Assembly (NCBI GenBank): GCA_003990765.1
Contig: RBNJ01000231.1
Span: 1 to 35,973, forward strand
Reading direction: 5' to 3'
From: Jimgerdemannia flammicorona
Taxonomy: Eukaryota
DNA: 35,973 nt
Shown: positions 1,230-34,681 of the stretch, piece by piece
Layout of the letters: the number at the start of each line of letters is the position of its first letter
Position numbering within the stretch: position 1 is the stretch's first letter
The notes under the pieces: generated by a model
What the model saw: only the letters and a program-made list of their open reading frames with translations
Databases searched by the model: none
Told to the model about the DNA's origin: nothing
Translations under genes and position numbers: made by a program

Positions 1230-1231
1230 CT

Positions 1232-1243
1232 TGGTAGCAGTAG
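1232..1243 (+). promoter_or_regulatory. Primer-binding site, probably initiator tRNA-Met
   Basis: TGGTAGCAGTAG lies 2 nt after the LTR. TGGTAGC is complementary to the 3' end of fungal/animal tRNAiMet. B2 and C carry the same motif. Confidence 0.75.
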
Positions 1244-2297: not shown

Positions 2298-2705
2298 CTC
2301 AAGGTTAAGAAGCTTTATCTAAAGACCCAGGTCCCTCAATATCAAACAAAAGGAGTCATTGGTCTTGACCTATACTCAGTCAAACAAGTCACTATTCTGA
2401 CCAAGGGCCACACTCTGGTACCTACTGGAATTGCAGTTCAATATCCTAAAGGATATTATACTAGAATTGCACCATGATCAGGACTTAGTGTCAAACATCA
2501 TTTAGATGTAGGTGCTGGTGTCATTGACCCAGACTTTCAAGGACAAGTTCAAGTCTTGCTTATCAACCAGAAGGATCAAGACTATATAGTTAAAGAAGGA
2601 GACTGAGTCATACAAATGATCCTGGAAAAAGCCAGTCAACTTAAGATTACAGAAGTCCAAGAACTCCTTGAAACTAAATAAGATCAAAAGGGTTTTGATA
2701 GTACT
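2298..2705 (+). pseudogene. dut: dUTPase domain of A2
   Basis: GLDLYS, VPTGIAVQYPKGYYTRIAP(R)[16 protein letters not shown] and C-terminal (R)DQKGFDST correspond to the trimeric dUTPase motifs. Confidence 0.88.
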
Positions 2706-4143: not shown

Positions 4144-4501
4144 ACTCAGACCACTATATACCCTATATCTGGGACCTCTTCTATTAACAAACCTTTTAAG
4201 AACTCAAGAACTGCCTGACCCATGCTCCAGTCCTACATAATGCAGATCAAGACCTAAAATCCATGGTCACTACTGATGTATCAAATTTTGCCATTAGAGT
4301 AGTCCTATCACAAGATGATGGTACTCAGACTACTATATACCCTATATCTGGGACCTCTTCTATTAACAAACCTTTTAAGAACTCAAGAACTGCCTGACCC
4401 ATGCTCCAGTCCTACATAATGCAGATCAAGACCTAAAATCCATAGTCACTACTGATGTATCAAATTTTGCCATTAGAGTAGTCCTATCACAAGATGATGG
4501 T
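4144..4501 (+). repeat. 179-bp tandem duplication in the A2 RT/RNase H linker
   Basis: 4144-4322 and 4323-4501 are near-identical. The A1 counterpart (~32410-32590) has one copy. Confidence 0.92.
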
Positions 4502-6420: not shown

Positions 6421-6505
6421 CTGGATTCGAATCCCTCTCAGTTGGTTAGTCTGGTAATAGGCCCTCTGCCCTATATGAGAATGGCTAATTCCCACTAATA
6501 TACTG
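6421..6505 (+). ncRNA. Candidate conserved structured cis-element in the A2 3' UTR
   Basis: GGATTCGAATCCC...AATAGGCCCTCTGCCCTATATGAGAATGGCTAATTCCCACTAATATACT aligns with 24823-24898, 29187-29262 (-) and 34508-34592. Confidence 0.5.
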
Positions 6506-6581
6506 ATTCAAGTTTGAGAAATTTTGGTTAAGTATATCTAGTCTTGTGTTATCTAAGAACTTAATGAGGACATTGATTCTT

Positions 6582-6594
6582 AAGGAGGGAGGGA
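6582..6594 (+). promoter_or_regulatory. Polypurine tract of A2
   Basis: AAGGAGGGAGGGA lies immediately before the 3' LTR. Confidence 0.9.
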
Positions 6595-7058
6595 TATAAT
6601 AATTTCACAGTTATATTTAGTCTTAGTACATTTTTGTATCTTTTAGTTAGTCTTTTCTTGTCATTTCTTGAATATTCTACTATGTTCTATTATCTTCTAC
6701 TTGCTTAGAAACCTTCTCTCAGTGCCCAGACACTACTAGAACATTTTTGTCTTTCCTTAGTGTCAAGTATCTTGTCTTAGCTAGTTATGGAACCTTTTGG
6801 AACATTGTAGAATAGTATTAGTTAGCTTTGCCAAGAACTTATTTCTTAGCATTTCTCTTTCTTTCCAAGATCCTTCTGGATCTTTCTTTCAGATTATGTA
6901 TAAATATTCTTGTTCTCTACCTGAATAAAGCTCAGAATATTTTCTTCTAGAAATTCTTCAAGAATACTTAAACTTTTAAGTATCTCTTCAAGCTACTTTA
7001 GGTCAACTAGAACTTCCAGATTTAGCTGCTTTCTCTTAAAGAAACTAGAACCATTATA
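6595..7058 (+). repeat. 3' LTR of A2
   Basis: Copy of 766-1229; both termini are mutated (TG>TA, CA>TA). Confidence 0.92.
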
Positions 7059-7097
7059 AGTAGTGTCATTATATCTTACCTTATTAAGAAATCTCAT

Positions 7098-8465
7098 ATG
7101 AATTCAGAAACCAGTCACAACTAGTTATATGAATCTGAAATGAGCTATGAAGAGTCAGCCTATTAGTCAGATCTCTCTGCTACAGAAGAAGCAAAAGGAC
7201 TACAGCTCAATATAAAGGATATATAAGATTAATACTATAGCTCACCAAATTCAAGAACTTCAAATAGTAGAAAACAAAAGCTATAAGTATATTATATTTT
7301 GTTATAGTACTAGTCAGTTTCAAGCCACTTAAGTCAGATACCTTTGATAGTCATTGAGGAGGACTATCTACAGATGTATAGACCTTCTAGTTGAATCAAT
7401 ACTTTGAGCTTACAAGAATGGAAGAAGACATGCAAGTCCAATTTACTACTACACTTCTCTGAGGCTGCACTCAACTGGAACCGGGAGCTGACACGGCAAC
7501 GTGATCGAGGCCCGCAGGCTTGAGTAGTGGGGTATTGGGGGTTTCCTCCTGCCTCACGTGTAAGTCCTTTACTCACCTTGACTGGGAGAACCAGGCCCTA
7601 CCCACCGTGTTGTGCTTTGATGAGGGTTTTTCTTTGCCTGTCATTCTCTTTGGGGTGGCAGGAACTATTCTATTCGGCTCGGGCGTGGCCTTGTACATAC
7701 GTTGGGTTCTCGGGCATGCGCTTTCAGTCGTTAGTGTATGGCTGCGTTTCCCCTGGTGGTAGGGAGAGCATGGTGCGCAGAACGAGGTGCGGGCCACTAT
7801 AGGCCCTGCTGCGCCTGGCATGGTCGAGCTACTGGACAATAGCTAGCCTAGGTTAATGGGGGGGCAGTGCTTGATGGGTGGTGGGGGAGGGTTTTGGCCT
7901 ATATAGTCTAGGTTCCCTTCCAATAAAATTCTGCAGGACATAGAGTCCATTAAACAAAAACTACACTTCTCTGAGAAAATACAGTTATCTAGTGACACAA
8001 TCATATCATAGTTACATCCATACACTCATATGCATGAATTAGAGACTGAGAAGCTTTCAAGAGAACCCTTCACAAGCAGTTCAAGCCTGCTAATACTACT
8101 AAGCTAGCCAGAGACAAGCTAGTAAATATCAAGCAACTCAAGTCTATACAAAGCTATAATACACAATTTTTATCAATCCTACTTGAGCTATCAGCAATAT
8201 TTAAGGATGAAAAGATAGATCACTATGTCCAAGATCTGAAGGTAAACACACAAGTCAAGGTTGAGCTAGAAGAGCCCAAAAACCTTAATAAAGCTATGAG
8301 AATCACTAATAGATTTGATATTATCATCTTTGGTAACTACTTTGAACCAGAATACTATAAGAAGAACTACTTCAAGAACTGCTACAAGAACTAACCAAGA
8401 ATAGTTGGCCCAGTACCAATAGACTTAAATACCATGAACAAAAAGAATACTAAGCTTATCTCTGA
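7098..8465 (+). pseudogene. A1 gag, N-terminal part, interrupted by the 7464-7959 insertion
   Basis: Colinear with A2 1278-2140; resumes at 29809. Confidence 0.88.
7464..7959 (+). mobile_element. 5'-truncated non-LTR retrotransposon (LINE 3' end or SINE-like)
   Basis: 16-bp TSD ACTACACTTCTCTGAG (7448-7463 / 7960-7975), A-rich 3' end TAAACAAAA(A) and AATAAA at 7922. GC- and CpG-rich, unlike its flanks. A short frame ALNWNRELTRQRDRGPQA* at the 5' end may be an ORF2 C-terminus. Confidence 0.8.
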
Positions 8466-8550
8466 TATAAGAGGGTTACTTATTAGAATAACTGTTATAT
8501 AGTTCTGGAAGAGTTTTCTGGAGGTTCTAGATATTCTAGAAGACTGTTTT

Positions 8551-10628
8551 TGTCAGAGGATTACTTGTTAGAGTAACTGTTACATAGTTCTGGAAGAGTT
8601 TTCTAGAAGTTCTGGATATTCTGGAAGACTATTTTCTTAAGGTCAAGATCAATTTTATATGGAGTATATCCTCTATGCATATTGATTTCAAGATTAGGTT
8701 AATGTCTCAACCAAAGTCCTTTTTTGGACTAGTTCTGGATGTTTAGGATTTTCTGTATTTCAGGAAGTTCAAGAAACTAAGACCAGCTTAGTTGGATTGG
8801 CATATTGCTGCAGACAATACCCAATTAGGAAATTTCGTGATGGAGTTAGGAGTGGGACCTAATGGAGAGCAGATTTACTTAAGAGTGGTTTATGGGTTAT
8901 TAAATAGGTTTATTCACTATTCATGATATTGCTATATTAGGAGTAGTTGTGTGAAGGGATATTGTGGAGAAGTGCTCAGGAGTTGTGTTCAGATTGTTCA
9001 AGTCTTTTTGTCTAAGATTCTGAGGTCTGGGAGAGGGGGTATTTATACTAGTGAGGGGCTATCTGGACTATACTAAATATGGATGTAGCACTTAGTACTT
9101 TGCTGAGTCATAATACAGTCACATAGTACAAGTGTGATCTGATATATCAAGAGATCATCTGACTGCTGAGTTAGTTCACAGTTATGTCATACAAGGCTAA
9201 TCTAACTATACTATGACTGCTAAGCTATCTATAGATTTAGATACTGTCTGAATAGTCTTTGATGACATTACTATCAATGACATCATCTTTGATAAAGTAG
9301 TTGTCTAGGAAGAGCTATTTGTAGATTAATTCTCCCTATTCACTGAGGTAGTAATATATTGAGACTTCATCACTATTCTATAGAATAGCATCATCTGTCT
9401 CATATACTGGGTATGGAGTTGGTGGGCGAAGGAGTGGTGCATTGTCTTTGCTTTCATTGAATTTGCTGTCTGCATATCTTCTATAGGTTACAGCACTATG
9501 AGTCATAGGGTTGTAGTAAGCTGGCAGCTGTGGTTCATGTCACTTATACTTAGGTGGTGGAGTGGTTGGTTTGATCTTGAGGGTTGTCTGGAGGTACAGG
9601 TTGTGTTCTCTAGTCTCTTTATTATAGTTGAAGTAGTCAGAAGTAAATGTGGGTTGGTACTTATACCAATGGTCATTATCTCAATAAGTCTCATAGGTGG
9701 TTATGAACTGTTATAAGTTCATTGGCAAAGTTGATGAAGTGATCAGGCTTGGCAAAGATCTTTGGCTTGAGATTATATTGGTGTCAGAGGGGTCATTGTC
9801 TTCTACTTTATCTTCATCAAATTAAATTATATCATAGATATCCTTTATAGCATATCCAACTTAAGGCATTTGTAGGATATGGTCATCAGGGTATGGGAAG
9901 GTTCTGTCTATAGTCTGAACATATTCGAGATACTTGTGGTTGAGTTCTTATATTATGTTATTGATTTGGCCATAGGACAGAGTAGCAACCATTTTGGTAG
10001 TAGTAACTCAGAGGTGGGGAATAAAGGTCCTATACTTGTAGAAGAGTTCTCAATGTTTGTAGGCAATGAGTTTCTGGTGTTGAGACATCTGAGTAATATC
10101 TGTATCATAGTAGTGTTCAACTATATCTTCTAGGAGGTGGTCAATCTGATAGTAGCTTGAGATTTGTCCAATTTGGTAGGCTTCACTAAGCATGTTCAGA
10201 GCATTCCATCAGATTTCCATGAAGTAGAGTGATGCTAAGCTATGGATATTCATGAGGGGCAGAGGGGATGTAGCTCAGTTGATAATAGCATTCCAAATAT
10301 CAGCACAGATGTGGTTATAGATCTTGGTGGTCATGTTTGTATATGTTCAGAAGTTGTAGTTGTTGTTTGTTTTAGTTCTCTATTTTGATGCATCTCAGTA
10401 CTTGGTATATGTATATGTATTTGGTCCTGATTAGTAAGATTCTGTTTATGTAAATCTTGTATTCCGTGACTTTGTGTTGACTCAGCTTTGTGCACTGTGA
10501 CTTCAGTTTGACTCAGCTTCATAATTGAGCAAGTGATTTTCAGATTTGTTCAGCTGTTGTGTGTGATTTCAGTGGCTTGTTCAGAGGGTAATATGTGATT
10601 TCAGTGGCTTAGAGGTTGTGCACTTACA
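8551..10628 (-). repeat. 3' LTR of B2 (2078 bp)
   Basis: TG...CA termini. Minus-strand TATAAAT at 9041-9047 and AATAAA at 8909-8914. Adjacent to the PPT. Confidence 0.92.
9237..10334 (-). pseudogene. LTR(U3)-encoded accessory ORF of B2, ~365 codons, unknown function
   Basis: One frame of 1098 nt from ATG 10334 to TAA 9237. All internal stops revert by C>T or G>A. Translation MTTKIYNHICADIWNAII...EAYQIGQISSYYQIDHLL...IAYKH(R)ELFYKYRTFIPHL...LSYGQINNII, then an acidic/Pro/Tyr-rich tail. Aligns by eye with the C ORF at 25153-25980. Confidence 0.75.
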
Positions 10629-10642
10629 ACTCTCCCCTTCTT
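10629..10642 (-). promoter_or_regulatory. Polypurine tract of B2
   Basis: AAGAAGGGGAGAGT on the minus strand, before TGTAAGTG. Confidence 0.88.
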
Positions 10643-11057
10643 AGCTTTTGACATCCTCATTGAGACCTTCTAATTTTGTTCTAGTATTGTTACACTGTTT
10701 AGGAGGTCAAAAGTCTGGTAAAGTCCATTTTTTCAGAAAGTAGCATGCTCATAGTACAGTTGCCTAACATATTGGATTCATACATTAAAGGGTCATGTAT
10801 TCAATGCCATATACCAGAAGTGATTCTGATATCATTCACTACTGGAGAATTTTCTCTAAGGAATCTTCTTAAATGTCTATGCCTTATTTTCCACCAGTGG
10901 TATAGGGAGAATAGACTTGCTTTCAGTTTTGCTATTTTTTTCCAGAGAGTCAGTATTTTTTTTCTTGTCTTATTGAGTTCTTGATTTTGTTCATGATAAT
11001 TATAATATTCAGAGGGGTAATACATAGTATGTACTGATAGGTGTAGAGTATTCAGTT

Positions 11058-14000
11058 TTAGTTATTCAAGGAATCATATTCCTGAACTAAGTCAGTTGCA
11101 TTCTGGAGATTGGTCTTGAGTTTCCATGTTGTATCATGGATTGGGTAACCTTTCTATTTGACAAGGTACTTAGAGTGGTTCTTGTGGCCATGTTTGTTGA
11201 GGATTTGTTCAACTTCATATTCTTCTTAGTTATTAAAATGACAGGTATAGGTAGTTCCATAGTTCAGTTTGAGAATAGCTCATCATTATTTTCATTATAT
11301 CACTTGAGACATTGGATATTAAAGACTGAGTGGACCTTAATAGTGTCTGGTAGTACCAATTTGTAGGAGATTGGAGAGACTTGTGCAATAACTTCAAATG
11401 GTCCAATAAACTTGCTATTCAGCTTTATAGATAGTCTGTACTTGAGGTTGTCAACTCAGTATCCTTAGATGTCTAGTAGAACTTTTTCTCTAATATTAAA
11501 GGTTTCTTCTCAGTAGTATTGATTAATATACTGTGACTGTTGTTCTTGAGCTCATGATAAATTCTTGATTATGATTTGGCTTAGATTACACATTTAGAGC
11601 AGGAATTCTTCAACAGCTTCAACTGTGGAGAGTTCATCAGTAGTTCGGATAAGTGTCAGAGGGGTGTTTGGATTTTGTTCTACATATATTAGCAAAGAAT
11701 AGGGTCATTCCAAGAGAGGCTTGTTTGCTGTTGTTGTAGGTAAACTTGACTGTAGTGAGGTGTTCATGCCAATCATCTTGTCTGTAGGAAATATAGTTCC
11801 TTAGCATTTATTCCAGAGTTTGGTTCATTCTTTTAGTTTGGCCATCAGTTTCGAGGTGAAATACTATAGATAGTGCAAGTTTTGTTCCAAGGTGTACATG
11901 GAGAGCTTTCCAAAAATAGCTAGTGAATTTCAGATCTCAGTCACTAACAATGATCTTAGGAAGACCATGATAGCAGAAGATGTTGTCAAACAAGAGTATG
12001 GCTATGTCTGGTGCTGTTGCAGTAGTAGTCATTGATACAAAGTGGGCTTGTTTGCTGAGATAGTCTACAAAGACAATAATTATATCTTTCTCATTCTTGG
12101 TCCAGGGTAGTTGTACAATAAAGTCTATAGAGATTTGTTTCCAATTAGCTGATGGTACTAGGATAGGGTGGAGTAGGTCAGGTTTTGCTAGTGTTGAGGA
12201 CTTGTTGTATTGACAGGCATCACAGAAAGTAATATAGGTCTTGAGCTGATCTGCCATGCAGGGCCAATAGAAGTTTCAGGAGATAACTTCATAGCATTTT
12301 TCAAATCCTAAATATCTAGCAGTAGGGATATCATGACATTTGAATAGAATAGTCCTTCAGAGGTCTCGGTTATTTGGAACATACAATCTGTCCTTATAGT
12401 AGATAGTATTGTCCTTGAGTTGGTATTGGTTGTACTGGGTATGCTTGTTAGCATTATCACTGTTCAGAACTTCTCAGAGTGCTTGAGCTTCCTTATCATC
12501 AGCACATGCTGCAATAATTTGTTCCATGATAGTGTTGGTAACCAAGGTGAGAGTTTGGATAACTTCTTCAATTGGTGGTCTGGAGATTGCATTAGCAACA
12601 ATATTTTCCTTACCAGGCTGGTACTTGATTTCATAGTCAAAGTTGGTAAGAACTTTCATCCATCTGGCTTACTTTTGAGAAAGGGTAGCCTGGGTCTTGA
12701 TATTGACTAATGACTTGTAGTCAGTCAATATGGTGAAGTGTGCTCCTTCTAGGTATGGTTACCATTTAATCAGAGTGTCTACAATAGCTAGTATTTTCTT
12801 CTTGTGGGTTGTATAGTTAATTTTAGCATCATTGAACTTGTAAGAATGATAGGCCACAGGGTGTCCTTCTTGTATGAGTACTACTCCAAGGGCTAGGTCA
12901 GAGGCATCAGTAGTAACTTCATATAGTAGGGCAGAGTTTGCTGCTTGAAGTACTGGAGTAGTTATCAATGCATCTTTTAGTACTTAAAAGGCTATATCTT
13001 GTTCGGGTCCCCAATTTGCAAGATTGTTGAAGTCTTTCTCTTATTTCATGGTTCAGAGCTGTTCTTCTTTCTTGCTATGCTTGATCATTTGGGTAAGGGC
13101 AGTAGCAATCTTGGAAAAGTTGGCAACAAATCATCTGTAATAGTTTGCTAATCCCAGGAATAACTGTAGGTCTTTCAGCTTCTTTAGTCTAGGCCAATTC
13201 TTAATTGCAGAGATTTTGCTGGGCTCTACCTTGATTCCATTCAGCATGATAATATATCTAAGAAATTGAATTTCTTTCAAGAGAAATTTGCATTTGCTAA
13301 GTTTTGTGAAGAGTTAGTTTTCTCAGAGTTTCAGTAGTACTAGTTCAAGATATTGAAGATGTTCCTCCAGGGTTTTGCTGAAGACTAGGATGTTGTCAAT
13401 GTAGACAATAATAAATTTGTCTAGATATGAGTGCAGGATGGTGTTCATCAGTATCTAAAAGGTTGTAGGAGCATTAGTTAAGCCAAAAGGCATAACTAGG
13501 AACTCAAAGTGTCCATAGTAAGTTTGGAAGGCTGTTTTGTAGATGTCTTCTTCTTTCATGGCAATTTGCCAATAGCCATTTCACAGATCAAAAGAGCTCA
13601 TAAATTGTGGGTTGGTAAGTCTGTCAAATATTTCATCGATTCTGGGCAGTGGGCAATAGTTCTTGATGGTCTGTTCATTGAGGTCACAGTAATTAATACA
13701 CATTCATAGGTCTTCTCCTTTCTTGATAACAAAGAGGACTAGTGTACTATAGGGTGATACACTGGGTCTAATGAATCCTTATTCTAGGAGTTTATTGATT
13801 TTTTTCTTGAGTGCATCAATTTCTCTCAGAGATATGTGGTAGATTTACTTGAAGGCTGGCTTGGCATCTGGAATAGTCTTGATTGCATGGTCTACTGCTC
13901 ATTTAGGAGGTAGGCCCTTTGGGAGTTTCTTTAGAAATATGTCTCAGAATTTCTAGAGTAGGGGTCTAATATAGCTGTCAACTTTAGAAAAGTCTTCCTC

Positions 14001-16194: not shown

Positions 16195-17140
16195 ATTGTT
16201 TACTGGAGGTAGTTGGACTACTGGTAGTGGTGTTACTGGTACTACTTGAGATACTGATGTAGAGTGTGATAGAGTTCTTTGGGTCTGTATAAGTTGTTGG
16301 AGTAATAGTTGTAGGTCTGAAGTGAGAGCTCAATAGATAGCTATCTATTACTATATAGATGTATTCTGTCCTGATGGAGGTGTGTCTCCTTTGGTGGTGT
16401 ATTTGAGATTGAATTCACTGAGATACTCCTCCTCTTCTTCAGTTTGGTCCCTGTGTAATTGAGTTTGCTTGGTATCAAAGTAGACAGAATCAGTTGTATA
16501 TCTGATTTCAGAAGGACTTAATTCAAAGTCAAGTTCTGGTTTGATATTGGTTTCAGGTTCAGATAGGGCCATAGCTAGACCTGCTTCTGGTTCAGGGTCA
16601 GATTGTTGATGAAGAGTTTCTCTTACTTCTTCCTTAAGAATATAGCAGGCCTTGCTGTTCTGGAAATATTAGTATAATGTGGTCTTGGTCCTGATATAGT
16701 GAAAGTCAGTAGAGTTGAGCTACTTGGCTATAGAGGTTTAGACTTCATGAGGGACTAAGGCTAGAAAGACTACTAATGGTTGTCCTAGGTTGCTCAGATT
16801 TGTAGAGCTGACAAAACTCTTGTTGAGAAGAGTAAAGAAGGCTTCTATAAGACCTTCTTCATCTTGACTTGCTGGGTGTAGTGCAAGGAGTTCAGTGTAT
16901 AGAGTTTCACCTATCTGCTGATTTAACTGAAGTATTTCTTTCTTTGAATGAAGTTTATTCCACTTGTTATAGGTGTGGAGGTCAAATTGTCCTTATATGT
17001 CAGGTTCAATTCTCTCCAGATTGTCAGATAGTTCAGAATAAATTCTAGTTCAGAAGTTGGGCTTTATACCAACTTGTAGGAATTTGTAAAGGGGTTTATA
17101 GCAGGGTGAGGAAGCATCTTGAAGCAGAATTAGATTATAA
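16195..17140 (-). pseudogene. In-frame N-terminal extension upstream of B2 gag
   Basis: Same frame as the gag ATG at 16194. FLALVPHEV(Q)TSIAK(W)LNSTDFHYIRTKTTLY matches C FLDYITPPAAREAAAEWITSDRYHHTPTKTSLY. Followed by an acidic linker. Confidence 0.6.
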
Positions 17141-17141
17141 A

Positions 17142-17153
17142 CTACTGCTACTA
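17142..17153 (-). promoter_or_regulatory. PBS of B2
   Basis: TAGTAGCAGTAG (TGG>TAG) 3 nt from the 5' LTR end. Confidence 0.7.
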
Positions 17154-17626
17154 AGTTATTAGAGGGTTACTTGTTAGGGTAACTATTACATAGTTCTGGA
17201 AGGGTTTTCTGGAAGTTCTGGATATTCTGGAAGACCATTTTCTTAAGGTCAAGATCAATTTCATATGGAGTACATCCTCTATGCTTATTGATTTCAAGAT
17301 TGGATTAACATCTCAATCAAAGTCCTTTTTTGGACTAGTTCTGGATGTTCAGGATTTTCCATATTTCAGGAAGTTTAAGAAACTAAGACTAGCTTAGTTG
17401 GATTGGTGTATCGCTGCAGACAATACCCAATTAGAAAATTTCATAACAGGGTTAGGAGTGGGACCTAATGGAGAGTAGATTTACTTAAGAGTAGTTTGTA
17501 GGTTATTAAATAGGTTTATTCGCTATTTATGATATTACTATACTAGGAGTAGTTATATGAAGGAATATTGTGAGGAAGTGCTCAGGAGTTGTGTTTGGAT
17601 TGTTCAAGTCTTTTTGTCTAAGATTC

Positions 17627-18428
17627 TGTAATAGAATAAACAAACGAGGTGCAATGAACAACGAGCGATCATGTGACCTGGCGAACGATGACATCATCAT
17701 ACGATCGAGTGTGGCATATAAATAATGAATGATGTGAAATGACGCAGAAAACGATATCCAGCTTATCCCCAATAATCGGCGCCGCAGCAACAGTTGCCAC
17801 AGCTGCTGATCATTGCCTAGTAATTGAGGTCCTGATCACAAAAATATTCTTTACCAAAAACCACCTGACAAAGGTTGTGATCACAAACCTCATTATAGTT
17901 ACCAAATTAGTCACTCATACTTAGTCAGAAATCATGGACCAACTTGTATAAATACCCCTCAGTTTCCATCTGAAATAAAGCAGTTTTAGTTCAGTTCTTG
18001 ATATAAGAATCAAGTCCCCCCCCACACACACACATTTCCCTGAGTCTTAGTAATGACATCTAAGTAACTCTAGTGTTTCTGACTAAACTCCAGAAGCCTA
18101 GCTAACTTCTGCCAGAACTGAGACCGGTATATAAATCCCCAAAGACTTAAGTAAACCCATTGAACCTGAATTCCAAGATGAATTCAGTCTGTACACAGTA
18201 AAGAACAAGACTCTCGAAATAGGGCACAAGAGAAAGACCTTTAAAACAGAAGGCAAACTAGAGAAAGACCTTTGAAAGATAAGGTACTGCCGCTACAACT
18301 ACTTATAAGCAAGCACTTCCTCAAACTGAAGGCTTCTTGGTATACATTATATACTAAGTTTCTAAGTAATAGTCCACTTCCCTAATTATCCTAAGGATAA
18401 GAGAGGGATAGAAGTGAGAGTTATTACA
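17627..18428 (+). repeat. 5' LTR of C
   Basis: TGTAATA...TATTACA termini, TATAAATACCCC and AATAAA. Confidence 0.95.
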
Positions 18429-18437
18429 ACTTAGTAG

Positions 18438-19319
18438 CAGCAGTTTACCAGTCAAGAAGGCACCAAAGAACACACTCCTGAAAGTTGGAACAAGACCAAC
18501 CTTGGACAGGAGTAACCCCCAGAACCAACTGTGGATCCTCAAACCAGAGCCAGAGAAGCCCTTGCCATTAGGACCAGGTGGTACCAGGAAACCACAGACA
18601 CAGAGACCTGCCAGCTTGTAATTGACCAGGCCTACAGGGATCTATACCAGGCCTTTAGGATATACCACCCAGGACTTAGGAATATTGTTAGCCACTATAG
18701 GTTCTATGAACTCCTCTGAGGACACATTGGAACCACTAGGACCCCAGAATCTACTGCTGCAGCCACCCAGGATTTTCTAGATTATATCACACCTCCTGCT
18801 GCAAGAGAAGCAGCTGCTGAGTGGATTACCTCTGACAGATATCATCATACCCCAACCAAGACCTCCCTCTACTACAGGCTAGTTGTATACTATGCCTCTG
18901 CCATAACTAGGTACGAGAACGAGCAAGCAGGCCAACCATCCCCTACTACTGAACAAGAAGCAGATCCATCTACTCAGCCAGAGACTGATATTCTCTTTGA
19001 AGGACCTAGTCAGTATGAGGATGCACTATCTCATCAGGGAAGGGAGTCAGACGAAGACTCTACAGATTACCAGTCTGATGATAGCCAATGAGGAACAGCA
19101 GGCCTAGAAATTTACCAAGGAACCACAGGTCAAGAAGATCAGACCCCAGAACCAACCCAGCCATCTATACAGAGGTTTGGTTTACCCTCTCTCACAGGAC
19201 TCTTTGATCTGATATCCGGGAATCAAGTAACTCCAAGTCATACAGTACCACAACCCCACTAAGCAGAACAATCTTCAGGAGAATCTACCCCAACAGGCCC
19301 ACCACCAATAGTCAATACA
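18438..19319 (+). pseudogene. In-frame, AUG-less N-terminal extension upstream of C gag
   Basis: Same frame as the gag ATG at 19320, with only transition-type stops. Contains a block homologous to B2 16195-17140. Confidence 0.6.
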
Positions 19320-22300
19320 ATGGTAGATGCCAACATTACAGCACTGACTACCCAGCTAGCAGTACTAGCAGGGATAGTAGGACAGATTGCTGAACAGAAC
19401 AAACCAATCAAGACCTTGCGAATCCCAACATTCAGTGAAAAAAACAGCAATATTGAAAACTTCATCAATGCAGTTGATACAGGCTACCGAGTAAACCAAT
19501 GGAATGACAATCGAGTACCTATAGGAATGCTCACCAACAACCAGAACAGCACTCTCCAGCAACTGTTTGCTACATCAGCAGCACAAGTGGAAACAGTAGC
19601 CATATTCTTTACTAGAACAGCAGCCAAATTCTGGCAAACTCTGGAACAATACCCAGTAACCTGGGAAGCCTGCCCTCAAGTCAATGGACAAGTACCTGGC
19701 AACAATAGACCAGGTTGGGATGACTATGAAGCAGGCCCAGGACTCAAGGCCTTGCTACTGACCAAATTCCAAAATGCGGCCTACATATAAGAAACTTGGA
19801 ACAAACTATCCCAGATGAAGTTCCACAAGAATGGCGAAGAAGATCTAGAGACCTTTGCCACCAGAATGGATACCTATCTCAAAACTATTGGACTTACCTA
19901 TCAGGAGAACAATTTGACCATTAATGGCACCAGAGCCAACCATCTCTTTGCAGCCCTACCAGACTGGCTCATCCAGAAGATCAAGGAACAAGGTCTTCCC
20001 CAAGGATGTCCCCACTACTCATGGTGCTTTGCCCAAGTACAAAGAAGAGCCCACGAAATTCTTGCTGCACAAGTCCCATGAAATCAAGAACACAAGAAGG
20101 ATAACCAAGATAGGAGAAACCCTACCAGGAGAAATGACCAAAGATATGACCAAAGATATGATCAAAGGAACCAGCAAAACCCCAGAGGACCTAGACCCCC
20201 CACCAAGGATGAAAAGAAGCAGCTCTGTGAAAAGGGATTGTGCTTCATCTGCAAGAAGGCAGGACATATCTCAGTCAAATGCCCTGAAAAGAGAAACAGA
20301 TCAGGCAAGCCCAGTAATCAGAACATTACTGTCATTGGAGAAGGTCCAGGAAAGAAGAACTCCGAGAATGTCATCAAAGTACAGAAGATATGGTACAAGG
20401 CTACCATCCCCACTAAGACCCACCCAACTGATGCTGGATATGACCTCTACAGTAGCCAAGACCTCACCATCCCACCAAGTACCAATGCTACAGTACAAAC
20501 AGGAATTGCAATGCAAGCTCCCAGAGGTACATACATCCACCTTGCTGAGCGAAGTAGCCTAGCCAAAGAGTTCAACATTGGGCTAGGAGGAGGAGTAGTT
20601 GACCAAGGATTTACTGGTGAAATCCATGTCATCTTGCGAAATTTTGGAGACATATCATTTGAAGTCAAAACAGGCCAAAGGATTGCCCAAGCAATCATTG
20701 AAGAAATCTGTCAAGATCTCACCATTGAAGAAGTCCCCGAACTCTCCCAAACAGACCGTGGCAAAAAAGGGTTTGGATCTACCAACAAACCTCCCAGTCA
20801 AAAGGTCACTACCATGAAGGAAGATGATGAAAACTGGTACAAGAGAATTGCAGATGGTTATACACTATGTGGATAATGCCCTCATTCTATTCAAATGTAC
20901 TGCATGGAACATGTTAGTGAATGCTATGCATGCCTCTCCAAAGTTTTCAAAATTCAATCTGAGAAACGCCAAGCTCAACAGACTGAGGAACCCAATCAAG
21001 ACAACCCTCCTTGTGAAGGATGGGGAGAGACTGACTTCGAGGAGACTGACAGCAATTGGGACAACAATGAGGATGAAGAGCTCAATACCATCAAGAAGGA
21101 GGACAGTTGCATCAAGTTCACAGGCCAAGTCCACAGACAAAATGTCAATGTCTTGCTTGATAGTAGTACTACCGGAAACTACATCAGCACCAAGACTGCC
21201 AAGAGGATCGGAGCCCAAAGCAGACCCACTGCTGAGAAAAGAAATGTTACCTTTGGTGATGGAAAGACTGCACCATTGACCAAGATCTATGAAGACCTTT
21301 TGCTCAAGATTGGCAAATATCAAGAGAAATTGAACTTCAGCATTGTAGATCTCCCAGGACAAGATATTATCTTAGGAAAAGCCTGGTTGACCCAGCACAA
21401 CCCAGACATCAACTGGAGAACCAATGAGGTTAACCTGACCCACAAAGGCAGAAAGATCACTCTGACACCCCAGGAAGGTACCAACTACCAAGGAATCGAA
21501 ATCATCTCTGCCATTCAAATGAAGAGACTCTCTCAAAAAAAGGGAAACACCTACTTCATCTGTACAGTACAAGAAGTTACTGAAGCTACAAGCAGCACAA
21601 TTCCAACAGAAGCTCAAGAACTGTTTGAAGAATTCCAAGATGTATTCCAAGATCCTCAAGGACTCCCACCCAAGCACCAAATCCAACATGGAATTGATCT
21701 TATTCCAGGATCTGAACCTCCATATAAGAGTATCTACCAACTGGCCCAACCTGAGCTCAAGACCCTCAAGGATGAGTTGACCAAACTACTGGCCCAAGGA
21801 TACATTGAACCCAGCCACTCTCCATTTGGAGCCCCCATTCTATTTGTCAAGAAGAAGGATGGCTCTCTGCGAATGTGTATTAACTACAGAGCCCTCAACA
21901 AGATCACCATCAAGAACCGATATGCCTTGCCCAGAATTGATGAGTTGCTACACCAAATCTTCAAGGCCAAGACCTTTTCTCTACTGGATTTGTGAAATAG
22001 CTACCACCAGATTCTCATTGATGAGAAAGCCATTGAGAAGACAGCTTTCCGAACACAGTTTGGATACTACCAGTTCCGAGTCATGCCTTTTGGATTGACC
22101 AATGCACCAGCAACATTCCAGTATCTGATGAATGACATCTTTGGACCACTCCTCAATATCTGTGTCCTTGTGTATATTGACGATATACTAATCTACAGTG
22201 AGACAGTAGAGCTACACTACACCCACCTTAAACAAGTACTGACCCTCCTGCAAGAACACTAGCTCTATGCTAAGATGAGCAAGTGTAAGTTCTATCAAGA

Positions 22301-24504
22301 CCAGATCGAGTACTTAGGACACATCATCTCTGCTGAAGGTATCAATGTGGACCCCCGAAAAGTATCAGCCCTTAAGGATATCCCTATCCCTACTACCCTT
22401 AAGCTACTACAGCACTTTCTGGGTATTACTGGTTATTACTGAAGGTTTATCCAAGGATATTCTGCTATTGCAGCCCCATTGACCAGCTTGGCCCATAAAG
22501 GAGTGAACATCAAAGCTGAATAGACCCCCAAATGCACTCTGGCTATGGACCATCTCAAGCGACTCCTTACTGAGGCCCCAGTACTAATTGCACCTAACTC
22601 TACCAGACCATTCACTCTGACCACAGATGCCTCTGACATTGCTATTGGAGCAGTGCTCAGCCAAGAAGACTGCCCAGTGGCCTACCTTTCCCAGAAACTC
22701 AAGCCAGCTGAGACCCGATATACCACCCATGAGAAGGAACTCCTGGCTATTGTCACTGCACTCCAGAAATGGTGCCACTTCCTCCTAGGACAGCCATTTG
22801 TGGCCTACACTGATCACCATGCACTGTGGTATATTCACATACAGCCTATGCTGACCCACAGACAAGCCTGCTGGATGGAAATCATTGCCAACTTTGATAT
22901 GAAAATCAAGTACATATATCCCAGGCAAAACCAACTGTGTGGCTGATGGTTTCTCCAGGTATATGGAAGACGAACTTGTCTTCCTAGTCGAAGTAATTGG
23001 AGACCTTACCCAAATGATCAAGGATGGCTACCAGCAAGACAGCCCTCTGATGAATTTCCTTCAATTCTGCCAAGACCCAGAGGCTGAGGTTCCAGAACCC
23101 ATGAGGCAAATGACCAAGAGATTCACCTACCATGATGGACTTATCTACAGAGACCATGACAGAGTAGTTGTACCCAACAATGATACTCTGCAACTCAAGA
23201 TCATGCAGGAACTCCATGATACTTCTGCAGCAGGACACTTTGGTTTCGAAAAGACCTACAACCTCCTCTCAAGAGAGTTCTACTGGCCAAAGATGACCAA
23301 GGATATCAAAGATTTTGTGGCCTCATGTGAGATATGCTAAAGGTTCAAAAGTAGTAACAAGCTACCAGCAGGACTTCTGCAACCCTTGCCTATCTCGAGT
23401 TACAACTGGGACCAGATTGCGATGGACTTCATTGTCCAACTCCCCAAGACCAAGGCAGGATGGGATGCCATCATGGTATTCATGGACCGCCTAAGTAAAC
23501 AAGCCCATTTTGCACCCACCAAGACCACTGCTACAGCACCAGAGATTGTCAAGATTTTTCTCAACCAAGTATTCAGGCTACATGGCATACCTAGCACCAT
23601 TGTATCTGACCGAGATGTCAAGTTCACAAGCAATTTCTGGAAGGCATTTTTCTCCCTCCATGGAACCAAGCTGAAGTTCTCTACTGCCTACCACCCTCAG
23701 ACTGATGGTCAAACTGAGCGAACCAACAGGACTCTCAAACAGATGCTTAGTATCTTCTGCTGTTACAAGCAAAATGATTGGGACAAGTACCTAGCCCATA
23801 CTGAGTTTGTCTACAATAACAGTCAGCAAACCTCTACAAAGAAGACTCCATTCTTCCTGAACCATGGTCAACACCCAAGGACCCTAAGTACTACTGCAAA
23901 ATCAGCAGTTCCAGCAGCCCAAGATTTGGCCAAGACCATTTCTGACCTTATGCAAATGATAAGAGATGCTCTCATAGAAGTACAAGACTATCAGACCAAG
24001 TACGCGAACTTGAAGCGAAGAGAAGCCTCCTACAATATTGGTGACATTGTCATGCTTAGAACAGACCACCTCCACCCAGACACTCTGGCACAACAACCAG
24101 CCAAGAAACTCCATACTAGAAGAATTGGACTATACAAGATCATGGAAAAAATCAGTGAAGTCAACTACAAGTTGCAACTTCCCCACAATATCCAAGTACA
24201 CCCAGTATTCCATATCAGCCAATTGGTGGACTACCATGAGAACCTATTCCCTGAGCATACAGTTCCACCACCACCCCCAATTAGGATCAATGATTATGAG
24301 GAATTCGAAATTGAGGAAGTACTTGACCACAAGGTCTGCAAATATCCTAAAACAGTCAAGTGCTTTTTCCTGATCAAATGGAAGGGTTACCCCACCCATG
24401 ATGCCACCTGGGAAAAAGAAGAAGCCCTGAAGAATACATGTGAAGCCCTCCAGGACTACATGGAAACACTCACCCCCCAGCAAAGGAAGGAACTACAGCT
24501 CTAA
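19320..24504 (+). pseudogene. C single-frame gag-pol: gag, CCHC knuckle, dUTPase, Cys/His module, protease, RT, RNase H, integrase, chromodomain
   Basis: [98 protein letters not shown] pieces 19320, 19815, 20238, 20895 and 22545 share a frame; there is one frameshift near 22915. Confidence 0.95.
20364..20783 (+). CDS. dut: dUTPase domain of C (uninterrupted)
   Basis: DAGYDLY, TGIA, ERSSLA, GGVVDQGFTGEI, GQRIAQ, RGKKGFGST: all five trimeric dUTPase motifs. Confidence 0.93.
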
Positions 24505-24822
24505 GTATAGGAGCATACAGCAAGCAGAAGGGTACCACATATTCTTATCTGGAAATATATAATACCAAACATTGTGAGGAAAAAAGAACACTATGGATAA
24601 TCAATAAGAAGATACCCGAGCAAAAAGAACAATCTAGTACAGTACAGCAAAATGCATTTGAACAACTCCATTTCATACCATCTGTGTCATCTCCACTAGA
24701 TGATGATGGACACTTCATGTGAAACTTAGGAAAGCCGACAATGTCGAAACCAGTCTAAGTCCATCCACGTGACAGATATTGTTACTAGGAATTGCCTCGG
24801 ATTACAAGAAAAGTCTATTTCT

Positions 24823-24898
24823 GAGAGATTCAAACTCCCAGCCGTGATAATGGGAGCCCTTGCCCTAGACAAGGATGGCCAGTCCTCGCAAATGCGCC
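24823..24898 (+). ncRNA. Candidate conserved structured cis-element in the C post-pol region
   Basis: GAGAGATTCAAACTCCC...ATAATGGGAGCCCTTGCCCTAGACAAGGATGGCCAGTCCTCGCAAATGCGCC; homologues in A1, A2 and B1. Confidence 0.55.
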
Positions 24899-25080
24899 AA
24901 CCAGACAAAAAAAAAGTGGACCAAGACCTGTTAACCCTGTGTAACCACAACTATGAGTGATAAGATCTTCGAAATCAGAATTTTCTCATGTGACCAGCAC
25001 ATGCTCTGCTTATAGCACAGGTTATGTATTTTTGCCAGAAAGTGTGACCAAAGGAAGGTCACATCAGATGGGTGAATAAG

Positions 25081-25091
25081 TATAAATACCC
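25081..25091 (+). promoter_or_regulatory. Putative internal TATA box for the C accessory gene
   Basis: TATAAATACCC matches the LTR TATA context of C and B and lies 72 bp upstream of ATG 25153. Confidence 0.55.
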
Positions 25092-25152
25092 AAGGCAAGA
25101 ATACCCCGCAACTCTCATCCCCCTCTCCTCACAAAGAAAAGACAAGACAAGA

Positions 25153-25980
25153 ATGCCTGCCACCCGCCACCAAACTGCCTACAGTAGCCAACCCCTCCCA
25201 AGCCAGGTTGACCACCTCTTTGGACACATCCGGGTTGCTATCCAAGGAAGGAACCACCGCTCAGAGGCCCTTAACCTCTCTAGCCCAGACCTAGGACAGT
25301 ATGTTCTTGACTGCCATGAACTTATCGAAAGGGCCTACCTTGCTACCAGCTGCCTAGAAATCTGGCACAAATATGAAATCGGTCACCAGCTTCTCCAACA
25401 TACAAATGACCTACCCACAGACCAGGTCTCTGACTGGACTCACCTAGATAGACATGAGCAAAGACTTGCCAAGAAGGTCCATCAAATCATGTACCATGCA
25501 TCCTTCGCGATCCCCAACCTCAACTACATACAACTGAAGGACTTCCAGAACCTCTCCTTCCCTGAGGTCGATGCCCTAGAAGTCAAGGTCGCCCAAGAAG
25601 CCAACTCCTGGATTGCTCTCAAGTCTACTGATATCGAGCCCCGCTGGAGCCCCCTCCTGAATGATAACCCTGACCAATGGCTCCAAGGCCTCTCTGACCT
25701 CTTTGAAGGACCGCCTATCTGAATAGATATTCCCAGACATGAAGACCAAGAACCCTACTTGGATGGCCCCAACCACATCAGATGGAGAACCCCTACACCA
25801 GCACTTATCCCAATGTAAGAACTATTTGCAGACCTCATTGACTTCTCCATCCTGAACAGCAAGCCACCAGTAACCACCCCCCCTGCCCCTGAAGAAGATG
25901 GTAACAACCCTGAGGAGGATTCCCCACCCTTCTCTCCCCTGGTTCTCAATTTCTCAATCAATGAGGATGTTGATTTCTAA
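25153..25980 (+). pseudogene. Accessory ORF of C (275 codons, two transition-type stops), unknown function, not env-like
   Basis: MPATRHQTAY...ELIERAY...YEIGHQLL...LAKKVHQIMYHASFAIPNL...LSFPEVDAL. The frame continues past TGA 25720 and TAA 25816 to NEDVDF*, which abuts the PPT. No visible signal peptide or TM segment. Confidence 0.75.
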
Positions 25981-25991
25981 GGAGGGAAGGA

Positions 25992-26793
25992 TGTAATAGA
26001 ATGAACGAATGAGGTGCGATGAATGACGAGCGATCATATGACCCGGTGAATGATGACGTCATCATATGATCGAGTGCGGTATATGAATAATGAATAATGC
26101 GAAACGACGCGGAAAATGATATCCAGCTTATCCCCAATAATTGGCGCCACAGCAACAGTTGCCATAGCTGCTGATCATTGCCTAGTAATTGAGGTCCTGA
26201 TCACAAAGATATTCTTTACCAAAAACCACCTGACAAAGGTCACAATCACAAACCTCATTATAGTTACCAAATTAGTCACTCATACTTAGTCAGAAATCGC
26301 GAACCAACTTGTATAAATACCCCCCAGTCTCTATCCGAAATAAAGCAGTTTTAGTTCAGTCCTTGATACAAGAATCAAGTCCTCCCCCATACACACACAT
26401 TTCCCTGAGTCTTAGTAATGACATCTAAGTGACTCTAGTGTTTCTGACTAAACTCCAGAAGCCTAGCTAACTTCTGCCAGAACTGAGACCAGTATATAAA
26501 TCCCCAAAGACTTAAGTAAACCCATTGAACCTGAATTCCAAGGCGAATTCAGTCTGTGCACAGTAAAGAACAAGACCCTTGAAATAGGGCACAAGAGAAA
26601 GACCTTTGAAACAGAAGGCAAACCAGAGAAAGACCTTTGAAAGATAAGGCACTGCTACTACAACTACTTATAAGCAAGCACTTCCTCAAACTAAAGGCTT
26701 CTTAGTACACATTGTATACTAAGTCCCTAAGTAATAGTCCACTTCCCTAATTATCCTAAGGATAAGAGAGGAATAGAAGTGAGAGTTATTACA
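25992..26793 (+). repeat. 3' LTR of C
   Basis: Copy of 17627-18428, differing essentially by transitions. TGACGTCA at 26054-26061. Confidence 0.95.
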
Positions 26794-27014
26794 GATTCTG
26801 AGGTCTGGGGGAGGGGGTATTTATACTAGTAAGGGGCTATCTGGACTATGCTGAATATAGATGTAGCACTTAGTGCTTTGCTGAGTCAGAATGCAGTCAT
26901 ATAGTACAAGTGTGATCTGATATGTCAAGAGATTGTCTGACTGTTGAGTCAGTTCACAGTCATGTCATATAAGGCTAATCTAACTATACTATGACTGCTA
27001 AGCTATCTATAGAT

Positions 27015-28111
27015 TTAGACACTATCTGGGTAGTCTTCAATGATATCACCATTGATGACATCATCTCTGATAAAGTAGTTATCTAGGAAGAGTTGTTTAC
27101 AGATTAATTCTCTCTATTCACTAAGGTAGTAATACATTGGGACTTCATCACTGTCCTACAGGATAGCATCATCTGTCTCATATACTGGGTATAGAGTTAG
27201 TGGGTGAAGGAGTAGTACATTATCTTCACTTTCATTGGATTCACTATCTGCATACCTTCTATAGATTAAAGTACTATGAGTCACAGAGTTGTAGTAAGTT
27301 GGCAACTGTAGTTCATATTGCTCATACTCAGGTGGTGGAGTGGTTGGTTTGATCTCGAGAGTTGTCTGGAGATACAGGTTGTATTCTCCAGTCTCTTCAT
27401 TGTAGTTGAAGTAGTCAGGGGTGAGTGCGAGTTAGTACTCATACCAATGGTCATTATCCCAATAAGTCTCATAGGTGGTTATAAACTATTACAAGTTCAT
27501 TGGCAAGATTGGTGGAGTGATCAGACTTGGCAGGGATCTTTGGCTTAAGGTATGTTGGTATCAGAGGGGTCATTGTCTTCTACTTCATCTTCATCAAATC
27601 GAATTATATCATAGACATCCTTCATGGCATATCCAACTTGAGGCATTTGCAGGATATGGTTGTCAGAGTGTAAGAAGGTTCTGTCTGTGGTCTGAATGTA
27701 TTTGAGGTACTTATGGTTGAGTTCTTGTATCATATTATTGATTTGGCCATAAGATAAGATAGCAACCATTTCAGTGATAGTAACTCAGAGGCAGGGAATA
27801 AAGATGCTATACTTGTAGAAGAGTTCTCAATATTTGTAAGCAATGAGTTTCTGGTGTTGAGACATCTGGGTAATATCTGTGTCATAGTAATGTTCAACCA
27901 TGTCTTCTAGGAGGTGGCCAATCTGGTAGTAGCTTGAGATTTGTCTGATTTGGTGGGCTTCACTAAGCATGTTCAGAGTATTCCATCAGGCTTCTACAAA
28001 GTAGAGTGATGCTAAGCTATGGATATTCATGAGGGGCAGAGGGGGTATGGCTTAGTTGATAATGGTATTCCAAATATCAGCATAGATGTGATTGTAGATC
28101 TCAGTGGTTAT
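27015..28111 (-). pseudogene. Second copy of the B2 LTR accessory ORF, in the 5' LTR
   Basis: ATG>ATA at 28111 and a 1-bp deletion near 27550. Retains YYQIGHLL (~27908-27931). TATATATACC lies ~79 bp upstream (28181-28190). Confidence 0.72.
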
Positions 28112-29186
28112 GTTTATATATGTTCAGAAGTTGTAGTTGTTATTTGTTTTGGTTCTCTATTTCAATGTATCTTGGTACTTGGTATATATAGATTTGGTCC
28201 TGATTGGTAAGATTCTGTTTATGTAAATCTTATATTCTGTGACTTTATATTAACTCAGCTTTGTGCACTGTGACTTTGGTTTGACTCAGCTTCATGATTG
28301 AGCAGGTGATTTTCAGATTTGTTCAGCTATTATATGTGATTTCAGTAGCTTGTTCAGAGGGTGACATATGATTTCAGTGGCTTAGAGGTAGTGCACTTAT
28401 AGTTTTCTTAAGGTCAAGATCAATTTCATATGGAGTATGTCCTCTATGCTTATTGATTTCAAGATCAGGTTAATATCTCAACTAAAGTCCTTTCTTGGAC
28501 TAGTTCTAGATGTCCAGAATTTTAAAGTTCAAGAAACTAAGACCAGCTTAGTTGAATCAGCATATTGCTGCAGACAATACCCAATTAGGAAATTTCATAA
28601 TAGGGTTAGGAGTGGGACCTAACAGGGAGCAGATTTACTTAAGAGTGATTTGTGGATTATTAAATAGATTTATTTGCTATTTATGATATTGCTATACTAG
28701 AAGTAGTTGTATGAGAGAATATTGTAGAGAAATATTCAGAAGTTGTGTTCAGATTGTTCAAGTCTGAGATTCTGAGGTCTGGAGAGGGGGTATTTATACT
28801 AGTGAGGGACTATCTGGACTATACTGAATATGGATATAGTACTTAGTATCTTGCTGAGTCAGAATACAGTTATATAGTACAAGTGTGATCTGATATATCA
28901 AGAGATTATCTGACCACTGAGTCAGTTCACAGTTACATCATATAAGGCTAATCTAACTATACTATAACTGCTAAGCTATTTATAGATTTAGATACTGTCT
29001 AGTTAGTCTTGATGATATCACTATTGATGACATCATCTCTGGCAAAGTCTGAGCAGTTTTCTGACTTCTGATATTATCAGTTTCAAAGGTATCATTATCT
29101 CTATCTCTTGCAAAATTAAGGCTGTCCTCAGTGGTGGTAGTTGTACAAGAATAACAGGTCTTGGTTCTTTTTTTTTTTGAGCTACT

Positions 29187-29262
29187 GGTACATTTGTAAG
29201 GACTAGCCATCCTTGTCTAGAGTGAGGGCTCTCAATATCATGGCTGGGGGTTCAAACCTCTT
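29187..29262 (-). ncRNA. Candidate conserved structured cis-element within the B1 LTR U3
   Basis: Minus strand AGAGGTTTGAACCCCCAGCCATGATATTGAGAGCCCTCACTCTAGACAAGGATGGCTAGTCCTTACAAATGTACC; part of a ~300-bp similarity to C 24645-24940. Confidence 0.55.
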
Positions 29263-29808
29263 GGAAATGATATTTTCTATAATCTGAGGTAATTTCTAGT
29301 AGTAATATCTATCATGTGGATGGGCTTGAGATTGGTTTTGACAATGTTGGCTTTCTTGAGTTTAGATGAAGCATCTGTCATTCTCCATTAGAGGTGATAT
29401 AGATAGAGTGAATAGGGTTATTCAAATGTATTTTACTTCTACTAAGTAATGAGGTCTTTGTATAGTTGTAGTATATCTTGGTCTTGAGTTGATAAGTATA
29501 ATTCATAAACCTTTAATAGATGAGATAGGGTTCTTCTTGTCTCAGTTTGAGTTTGGTACTTCAGTTTCCTTTTGTAATAGTATAGTATACCAAAACTAGT
29601 TGTAGAGATATAGGGTCAGTCTTATGATTATAGTACTTCTTCTGATATTCTTATATCTTGGCAGTAGGTTCTTGTGTTTGCTGGTATATTTTGTGTAACC
29701 AGGTGATCTCTTCAGTAACTTGTTTTGTAGTCTCACATATAGTTTCCAAATTAGTTCTGAGGATAACATGTGATTTTAGTGACTTGGAGATTGTGTACTT
29801 ATATCTGA

Positions 29809-34380: not shown

Positions 34381-34507
34381 TGACTTCCTTAGATTGTTGA
34401 TGACCTATAGTAATGACCAATACCTTATATATCAGAAGTTTACTTTGGGACCCCAGAACTAGCAGAACATTTAATAAACAAAAAGTCTACCAAAATGAAG
34501 CTACTAG

Positions 34508-34592: not shown

Positions 34593-34681
34593 ATACAAGT
34601 TTGAGAAATTTTGGTTAAGTATATCTAGTCTTGTATTATCTAAGAACTTAATGAGGATATTAGTTCTTAAGGAGGGAGGGA

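Follow-up and report, generated by a model that had tools for sequence, protein, structure and literature searches.

Can the long terminal repeat (LTR) of a retrotransposon hold a complete protein gene of its own? The question is raised by a 35,973-nt stretch of DNA from Jimgerdemannia flammicorona (contig RBNJ01000231.1, positions 1 to 35,973 of the forward strand; hereafter the window), in which a Ty3/gypsy element, B1, ends in a 2078-bp LTR. An initial annotation had proposed that a whole gene of about 365 codons lies inside this LTR. We consider it likely that B1 carries a real accessory gene that is situated wholly inside a true LTR and is dead in the window. The open reading frame (ORF) is best explained as a genuine accessory gene, restricted to its lineage, of a Ty3/gypsy chromovirus that is probably fungal. 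The element, its borders and the two copies of the ORF are as follows.

8551-28401, minus strand: full element B1, inserted into a solo LTR (B0) with target duplication GTTTT
8551..10628, minus strand: 3' LTR of B1, 2078 bp, with minus-strand ends TGTAAGTGCAC...CCTCTGACA
26799..28401, minus strand: upstream part of the B1 5' LTR, covering LTR positions 1 to ~1606 and severed from the rest by the insertion of element C
17157..17626, minus strand: 5' LTR of B1, downstream part (R/U5 side)
8546..8550 (left) and 28402..28406 (right), no strand assigned: target-site duplication GTTTT, flanking B1 in otherwise continuous B0 sequence
10629..10642, minus strand: polypurine tract AAGAAGGGGAGAGT, adjoining the 3' LTR and read from the sequence
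17138..17156, minus strand: primer-binding-site-like sequence ACTTAGTAGCAGTAGTTTA, 19 nt, adjoining the B1 5' LTR
9237..10334, minus strand: LTR-borne ORF, 3' LTR copy, 365 codons plus stop (ATG to TAA), LTR positions 295-1392
27018..28111, minus strand: the same ORF, 5' LTR copy, in which ATA replaces the start ATG, one nucleotide is deleted near codon 188 and 9 internal stops occur

The two LTRs of B1 (8551-10628 versus 17157-17626 plus 26799-28401) are 88.6% identical, and the 3' LTR has the termini TGTAAG...CTGACA, i.e., TG..CA. From gag through to the end of integrase, the interior of B1 is colinear with element C (tblastx), and Pfam recognized RNase H and the integrase zinc domain on fragments of B1. 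A putative B1 chromodomain is represented by a single 31-residue tblastx match only (45% identity), C itself having a Pfam Chromo match. The 19-mer adjoining the B1 5' LTR was also found behind the 5' LTR of C (18429-18447, plus strand), one transition apart from that of B1. Together, the TG..CA ends, the target duplication, the polypurine tract, the shared 19-mer and the colinear interior make the LTR borders firm; the 2078-bp repeat is a genuine LTR that contains the entire ORF. Since the locus is a complicated nest with a third, partial LTR copy, one might suppose that the LTR has been misdelimited and that the ORF is an internal gene duplicated by rearrangement. The third copy, however, is the solo LTR B0 with its own duplication TCTGA, invaded by B1 (GTTTT), and the inner LTR borders coincide exactly with the polypurine tract and the primer-site-like sequence. 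This supposition is already refuted as far as the present data go, and we regard it as extremely improbable.

A separate observation concerns the primer-site-like 19-mer of B1 and C, which is without an initial TGG and therefore would not pair with the 3' CCA end of a tRNA. Self-priming was weighed by eye as a reading of this site and dropped.

The frame in the 3' LTR was located where the initial annotation had placed it (10334 to 9237, minus strand; 365 codons plus stop), and with 1098 of the 2078 bp the ORF accounts for most of the extra length of the LTR, as had been suggested. Thirteen internal stops interrupt the 3' copy: six TGA (codons 20, 42, 95, 109, 218 and 265), four TAA (129, 158, 171 and 208) and three TAG (319, 333 and 340). 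The initial annotation had called these stops "only revertible"; since a single transition turns any stop codon into a sense codon, the remark is uninformative. The lesions of the two copies, by comparison of the aligned LTRs, are partly different, in agreement with the annotation. Seven of the 13 stops (20, 42, 95, 109, 208, 319 and 333) are common to both copies, six (129, 158, 171, 218, 265 and 340) are sense codons in the 5' copy, and two stops (codons 209 and 227) are private to the 5' copy, in addition to its deletion and its ATA.

How far does the number of stops argue for a gene? Across the same interval, the remaining minus-strand frames contain 19 and 42 stops and the plus-strand frames 14, 31 and 35. 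Because one plus frame thus also has 14 stops, the count does not even identify the strand; the strand asymmetry across the ORF does agree with the gag-pol sense strand. In 5000 shuffles the mean number of stops was 21.8 (sd 4.4), with a probability of 0.044 for 14 or fewer, and 12.7% of all 1098-nt minus-strand frames in the internal region plus 3' LTR (8551-17156) had 14 stops or fewer. The stop count alone is weak, marginal evidence for the ORF, and these figures would also suit a chance semi-open frame, with no gene at all, in AT-rich, hypermutated DNA.

What raises the frame above chance is the existence of two relatives that are open in the same frame, with the same start and the same end. 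A HMMER profile search of 1,835,955,588 representative proteins returned P0002 (E 2.9e-141), P0003 (E 5.6e-62) and no other homologues. A word-based search of 5.8 billion proteins gave P0002 as the single match from 367 candidates, and a second one, directed at shorter proteins, gave P0003 as the single match from 21 candidates. P0003 (128 amino acids) corresponds to codons 1-128, begins with the identical start methionine (MTTEIYN...) and aligns without gaps, with 96 of 128 residues identical. P0002 (247 amino acids) corresponds to codons 115-365 and ends at the same terminal residue (146/251 identical, 193/251 similar); its alignment contains two gaps only, each in-frame and of two residues. 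When P0002 was compared with the window by tblastn, minus-strand matches only were obtained. Both proteins are the sole members of their own clusters, each derived from one contig of ~1 kb.

Many of the differences between these relatives and the window copies follow the direction of decay. All 10 arginine positions of P0003 are occupied in both window copies by CAC, TGT, TAT, TGA, TAA, CAA, TAC or TGC, codons that CpG decay yields from CGN, including the shared TGA stops at codons 20, 42, 95 and 109. Decay by C to T or G to A in the window could explain 27 of the 32 amino-acid differences from P0003 in the 3' copy and 27 of 31 in the 5' copy, compared with a permutation mean of 8.9-9.2 and a maximum of 17 (2000 runs). 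For P0002, 42 of the 101 differences are explicable in this way (null 13.9); the other 59 go beyond decay and thus represent real divergence, throughout which the frame has been kept open. A chance frame is at odds with two database proteins open in exactly this frame, with its start and its end, and with a decay test of 27/32 against a null of 8.9; such a frame is already refuted as far as the present data go, and we deem it very improbable. We conclude from these comparisons that, in family members which have decayed less, the ORF is genuinely coding.

The same substitutions explain why neither copy in the window is functional. The B1 LTR pair shows 235 differences over 2066 aligned sites, of which 229 are transitions and 6 transversions. 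C/T mismatches between the LTRs are followed by A in 74 of 147 cases and by an A/G mismatch in 22 of 147, the latter pattern being the mark of a CpG that decayed on different strands in the two copies, and G/A mismatches are preceded by T in 42 of 82 cases. The ratio of observed to expected CpG lies at 0.03-0.06 in the older elements (A, B1 and B0), whereas C has 0.21 and a GC content of 45%. The process is hypermutation resembling repeat-induced point mutation (RIP) or linked to methylation. Both ORF copies in the window are dead, destroyed by C to T and G to A hypermutation, and owing to this process the divergence of the LTRs cannot be used for dating B1.

What kind of protein would the gene encode? 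The N-terminal 120 residues are predicted, with low confidence (pLDDT, the predicted local distance difference test score, of 52.6), to form five helices; a Foldseek comparison of this model with the PDB gave a meaningless best E of 0.97. The C-terminal 247 residues show no confident fold (the protein atlas model of P0002 has a pLDDT of 0.39 on a scale of 0-1). This part is strongly acidic, rich in tyrosine and proline and devoid of cysteine: P0002 has an isoelectric point of 4.05, 46 aspartate and glutamate against 10 lysine and arginine residues, 23 tyrosines and 24 prolines, and the tail is probably disordered. The protein atlas listed no feature matches for P0002, and for P0003 only unrelated leads below recognition level. 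A membrane segment was not found, as no 19-residue window reaches a hydropathy of 1.0; the product is therefore neither an envelope protein nor a membrane protein like Sag of mouse mammary tumour virus (MMTV). Two candidate identities had been tried and were rejected. An env-like third ORF was set aside for want of a hydrophobic segment and because the ORF is part of the LTR, beyond the polypurine tract; the MMTV superantigen family was dismissed for lack of Pfam likeness at E ≤ 10 and for a highest 19-residue hydropathy below 1.0. We picture an intracellular product, with a helical N-terminal part of ~120 residues and an acidic tail, that would act on the life cycle of the element itself, for example on transcription or against silencing, and not as an envelope; a regulatory or adaptor role inside the cell is only a guess.

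Candidate signals for the expression of such a gene were found on both sides of the ORF.

10562..10610, minus strand: 17-nt sequence repeated exactly, its two copies 32 nt apart, close to where U3 begins
10457..10518, minus strand: 31-nt tandem duplication with TGACTCA in each unit, 120-185 nt upstream of the ATG
10404..10417, minus strand: TATA-like run CATATACATATACC of the 3' copy, 70-83 nt before the ATG
28183-28190, minus strand: TATA-like TATATATA of the 5' copy, 79 nt upstream of the start position
9040..9047, minus strand: canonical TATA box TATAAATA at LTR position 1582, presumed main LTR promoter, kept in the 5' LTR (26818-26825) and in B0
8909..8914, minus strand: AATAAA, LTR position 1715, presumed to be the poly(A) signal where R meets U5, and also retained by the 5' LTR (17515-17520)

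By these motifs, the unique 3' region (U3) would extend to about LTR position 1610, the repeat region (R) to about 1735 and the unique 5' region (U5) to 2078, which would place the whole ORF in U3, upstream of the TATA box and the poly(A) signal of the LTR. The canonical TATA box follows the ORF stop by 190 nt and precedes AATAAA by 133 nt; as it stands between the two, AATAAA would be the ordinary poly(A) signal of the LTR. The initial annotation had named both this AATAAA (8914 to 8909) and the TATA-like box about 79 bp upstream in the 5' copy (28190 to 28183), and both are present there. The ORF start has A at position -3, and TGASTCA also occurs ~57 nt upstream of the main TATA box; one LTR contains four such sites. 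The only strong splice-like motif is GTAAGT at LTR positions 2-7; it was considered as a splice signal and put aside, as it is donor-like and of no help.

These motifs suggest that the ORF has its own promoter. Transcription would start from a small promoter in the first 294 nt of the LTR, where two tandem duplications, two TGACTCA sites and the TATA-like run are found, and the transcript would end at the ordinary LTR poly(A) signal, yielding an mRNA of ~1.5 kb. We rate the chances of this arrangement as a little short of even. The same real gene might instead be expressed only within the full element, as a 3'-terminal gene translated from a subgenomic RNA, either spliced or internally started, whose 3' end lies in the 3' LTR; the ORF copies in the 5' LTR and in any solo LTR would then not be expressed. 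The genomic RNA would indeed have the ORF as its 3'-terminal gene, behind pol and the polypurine tract and ahead of the canonical TATA box. Element C keeps its extra ORF in the same post-pol place, albeit internally, the evidence for an own promoter consists of motifs, and sag of MMTV and nef of lentiviruses are both read from spliced or internally started subgenomic RNA. Such a route lacks an acceptor-like signal tied to the ATG, the only strong splice-like motif being donor-like, and it leaves aside the TGACTCA tandem duplications, which closely precede the ORF and are over 1 kb away from the main TATA box. We favour the own-promoter route and place the subgenomic RNA second, as possible but unlikely.

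Several points weigh against reading the ORF as an accessory gene with its own promoter. Among the database matches, a single copy open over all 365 codons was not seen (P0002 begins at codon 115, and P0003 ends at codon 128), and as both come from contigs of ~1 kb, they may themselves be cut by stops. The proposal in the annotation that the active element had an intact ORF thus stands in part: the relatives are open over codons 1-128 and 115-365, which fits an active ancestor with an intact ORF, while one full-length open copy is missing. Of the 13 internal stops, 7 are common to both LTRs, and B1 may already have been defective at insertion; given the hypermutation, shared stops are also expected from parallel hits. 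At the protein level, no Pfam match was obtained even at E ≤ 10 for the translated ORF (with X at stops), for P0001 or for P0002, a PDB sequence search found no match to solved structures (best E 0.29), and AlphaFold models built from shallow alignments were poor, the N-terminal part reaching a pLDDT of 52.6 and the C-terminal part one of 30.7. As for expression, U3, R and U5 were placed by motifs alone, the TATA-like run is not the same in the two LTR copies, and TGASTCA is not enriched across the window (14 occurrences versus 9.95 expected; 12 of 100 shuffles reached 14).

Does every LTR of this family carry the gene? The solo LTR into which B1 inserted and the element that interrupts its 5' LTR bear on this question.

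28407..29803 with 8466-8545, minus strand: solo LTR B0, a variant of the B1 LTR family and the insertion site of B1
17627..26793, plus strand: element C, a younger dUTPase-bearing chromovirus with LTRs of 802 bp, in the B1 5' LTR
25048-25719, plus strand: extra ORF of C, intact, 224 codons, after the chromodomain and upstream of the C polypurine tract, with no Pfam match

B0 matches the B1 LTR at positions 3-50 and 1331-2074. It is without LTR positions 51-1330, which include ORF codons 1-345, and has 705 unrelated bp in place of these 1280 bp; its longest sense ORF has 78 codons. The initial annotation had described every LTR, including solo LTRs, as a self-contained expression cassette. Promoter-like motifs precede the ORF, but the ORF is missing from the only solo LTR that this family has in the window, and the statement is wrong in its general form. 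Part of the B0 U3 (29152-29434, minus strand) resembles the post-pol region of C (24649-24933, plus strand), with 77% identity over 288 nt, and as this likeness is seen in several frames it is probably one of DNA rather than of protein.

The extra ORF of C has one open relative, P0004 (64% identity). Being upstream of the C polypurine tract, it is internal and not LTR-borne. A tblastn search of the B1 ORF against the post-pol region of C and against B0 gave nothing at E ≤ 1, so the extra ORFs of B1 and C are unrelated. To judge from these comparisons, the post-pol/U3 segment behaves as a module exchanged between related elements, and whether a cassette is internal or LTR-borne depends on the side of the polypurine tract on which it lies. 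In such a modular U3, where B0 holds 705 unrelated bp that are partly like the post-pol region of C (77% over 288 nt), the ORF might be a mere passenger, derived from part of a host gene or from some other mobile element, that recombined into U3 and has no role for B1. A host-like parent is lacking, however: the two matches among 1.84 billion representatives are both short fragments of the same ORF, with no cellular homologue outside mobile elements among them, and the frame has stayed open in a relative that is just 58% identical. A passenger is accordingly held to be improbable, and an accessory gene of the element remains the preferred reading.

The whole window is a nest of Ty3/gypsy elements of families A, B0/B1 and C, and no host gene was found in its 35,973 nt; nor were any Rfam families found in the window. 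Two further features belong to this nest.

288-751 (extra LTR), 768-7058, and 6597-8456 plus 29809-35145, plus strand: tandem array of family A
2070-2474 (family A) and 20082-20873 (C): dUTPase domain, placed after gag and before protease (Pfam E 3.9e-07 and 8.8e-33, respectively)

Family A, a plus-strand family with ~465-bp LTRs, is arranged as an array of the type LTR-internal-LTR-internal-LTR, as expected from unequal recombination between elements; in order, the extra LTR at 288-751 is followed by an LTR, an internal region, a shared LTR, a second internal region and an LTR. A 179-bp unit is present as a tandem duplicate (99% identity) at 4144-4501 in the first A unit and as a single copy at 32411-32589 in the second, and the second unit also contains two stretches without counterpart in the first, 7465-7959, which is GC-richer (~44%), and 30038-30624. 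The B0/B1/C nest is situated within the second A unit. B0 inserted into A with the target duplication TCTGA (8461-8465 and 29804-29808), and C is flanked by GATTC (17622-17626 and 26794-26798), its insertion point lying ~20 nt downstream of TATAAATA of the B1 5' LTR, at the predicted transcription start. A dUTPase between gag and protease has been reported for some fungal chromoviruses (PMC2864245), and its presence here, together with the RIP-like signature, points to a fungal host.

Is such an arrangement known elsewhere? Lentiviral nef and foamy-virus bet/bel2 are accessory genes at the 3' end that extend into the U3 part of the 3' LTR. They only overlap U3, whereas the B1 ORF lies inside the LTR from start to stop, and we know of no homology between it and them. 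The sag gene of MMTV encodes a type II membrane glycoprotein. Like the B1 ORF, sag is a complete gene, of about 320-365 codons, in U3, downstream of pol and the polypurine tract and hence present in both LTRs; unlike it, the B1 product has no sequence likeness to Sag and no membrane segment, and B1 is a Ty3/gypsy retrotransposon without env, probably fungal, whereas MMTV is a vertebrate retrovirus. This "LTR ORF" (PMC2118998) is the closest known arrangement.

Among fungal elements, Ty3/gypsy retrotransposons with extra ORFs of unknown function have been described (PMC2864245), BcGypsy1/Boty of Botrytis carries the extra gene brtn (bioRxiv 10.1101/2021.04.13.439636), and a review places captured ORFs downstream of pol and refers to "long noncoding terminal repeats" (PMC6431247). 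In these descriptions, the fungal extra ORFs are internal, whereas that of B1 is in the LTR; C in the window carries such an internal ORF. In the available text on crapaud of Podospora, a fungal Ty3/gypsy element affected by RIP (PMC10787394), the differences among LTR subfamilies are concentrated in the 5' half of the LTR, which matches the B0/B1 difference and the hypermutation in the window; gag and pol are the only ORFs described there, versus the extra ORF in B1. The Cassandra terminal-repeat retrotransposons in miniature (TRIMs) are reported to carry a 5S rRNA-like gene with its own promoter inside both LTRs (bioRxiv 10.1101/2023.07.14.548913). In Cassandra, a non-autonomous plant element, the unit is an RNA gene transcribed by Pol III, whereas B1 has a protein gene in an autonomous element. 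In the literature outside subscription journals and supplements, we found LTR-borne protein ORFs only for MMTV, and no report of a U3 gene in an env-less retrotransposon of a fungus-like genome.

The placement of a protein gene in an LTR is therefore already known from MMTV, and the B1 product is an orphan protein. LTRs are treated as non-coding and masked before gene calling, so that a gene in an LTR is easily missed, and such masking fits the finding of just two fragmentary relatives among billions of predicted proteins. The exchange of post-pol/U3 modules offers a simple route by which an internal extra ORF could end up inside an LTR. Because the B1 ORF lies downstream of the polypurine tract, reverse transcription copies it, within the LTR, to both ends of new insertions; a U3 gene is thus doubled in each insertion and can survive in solo LTRs. 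Taken furthest, the LTR would itself be a mobile gene, made of a small promoter, a 365-codon gene and a poly(A) signal, and both LTRs as well as ORF-bearing solo LTRs would express a trans-acting protein that serves the family. We consider this rather improbable. If it were true, the protein might be an activator, with its helical N-terminal part and acidic tail, of the TGASTCA-bearing LTR promoters, or else a factor countering silencing, and solo LTRs would be coding helpers of their family, not dead remnants.

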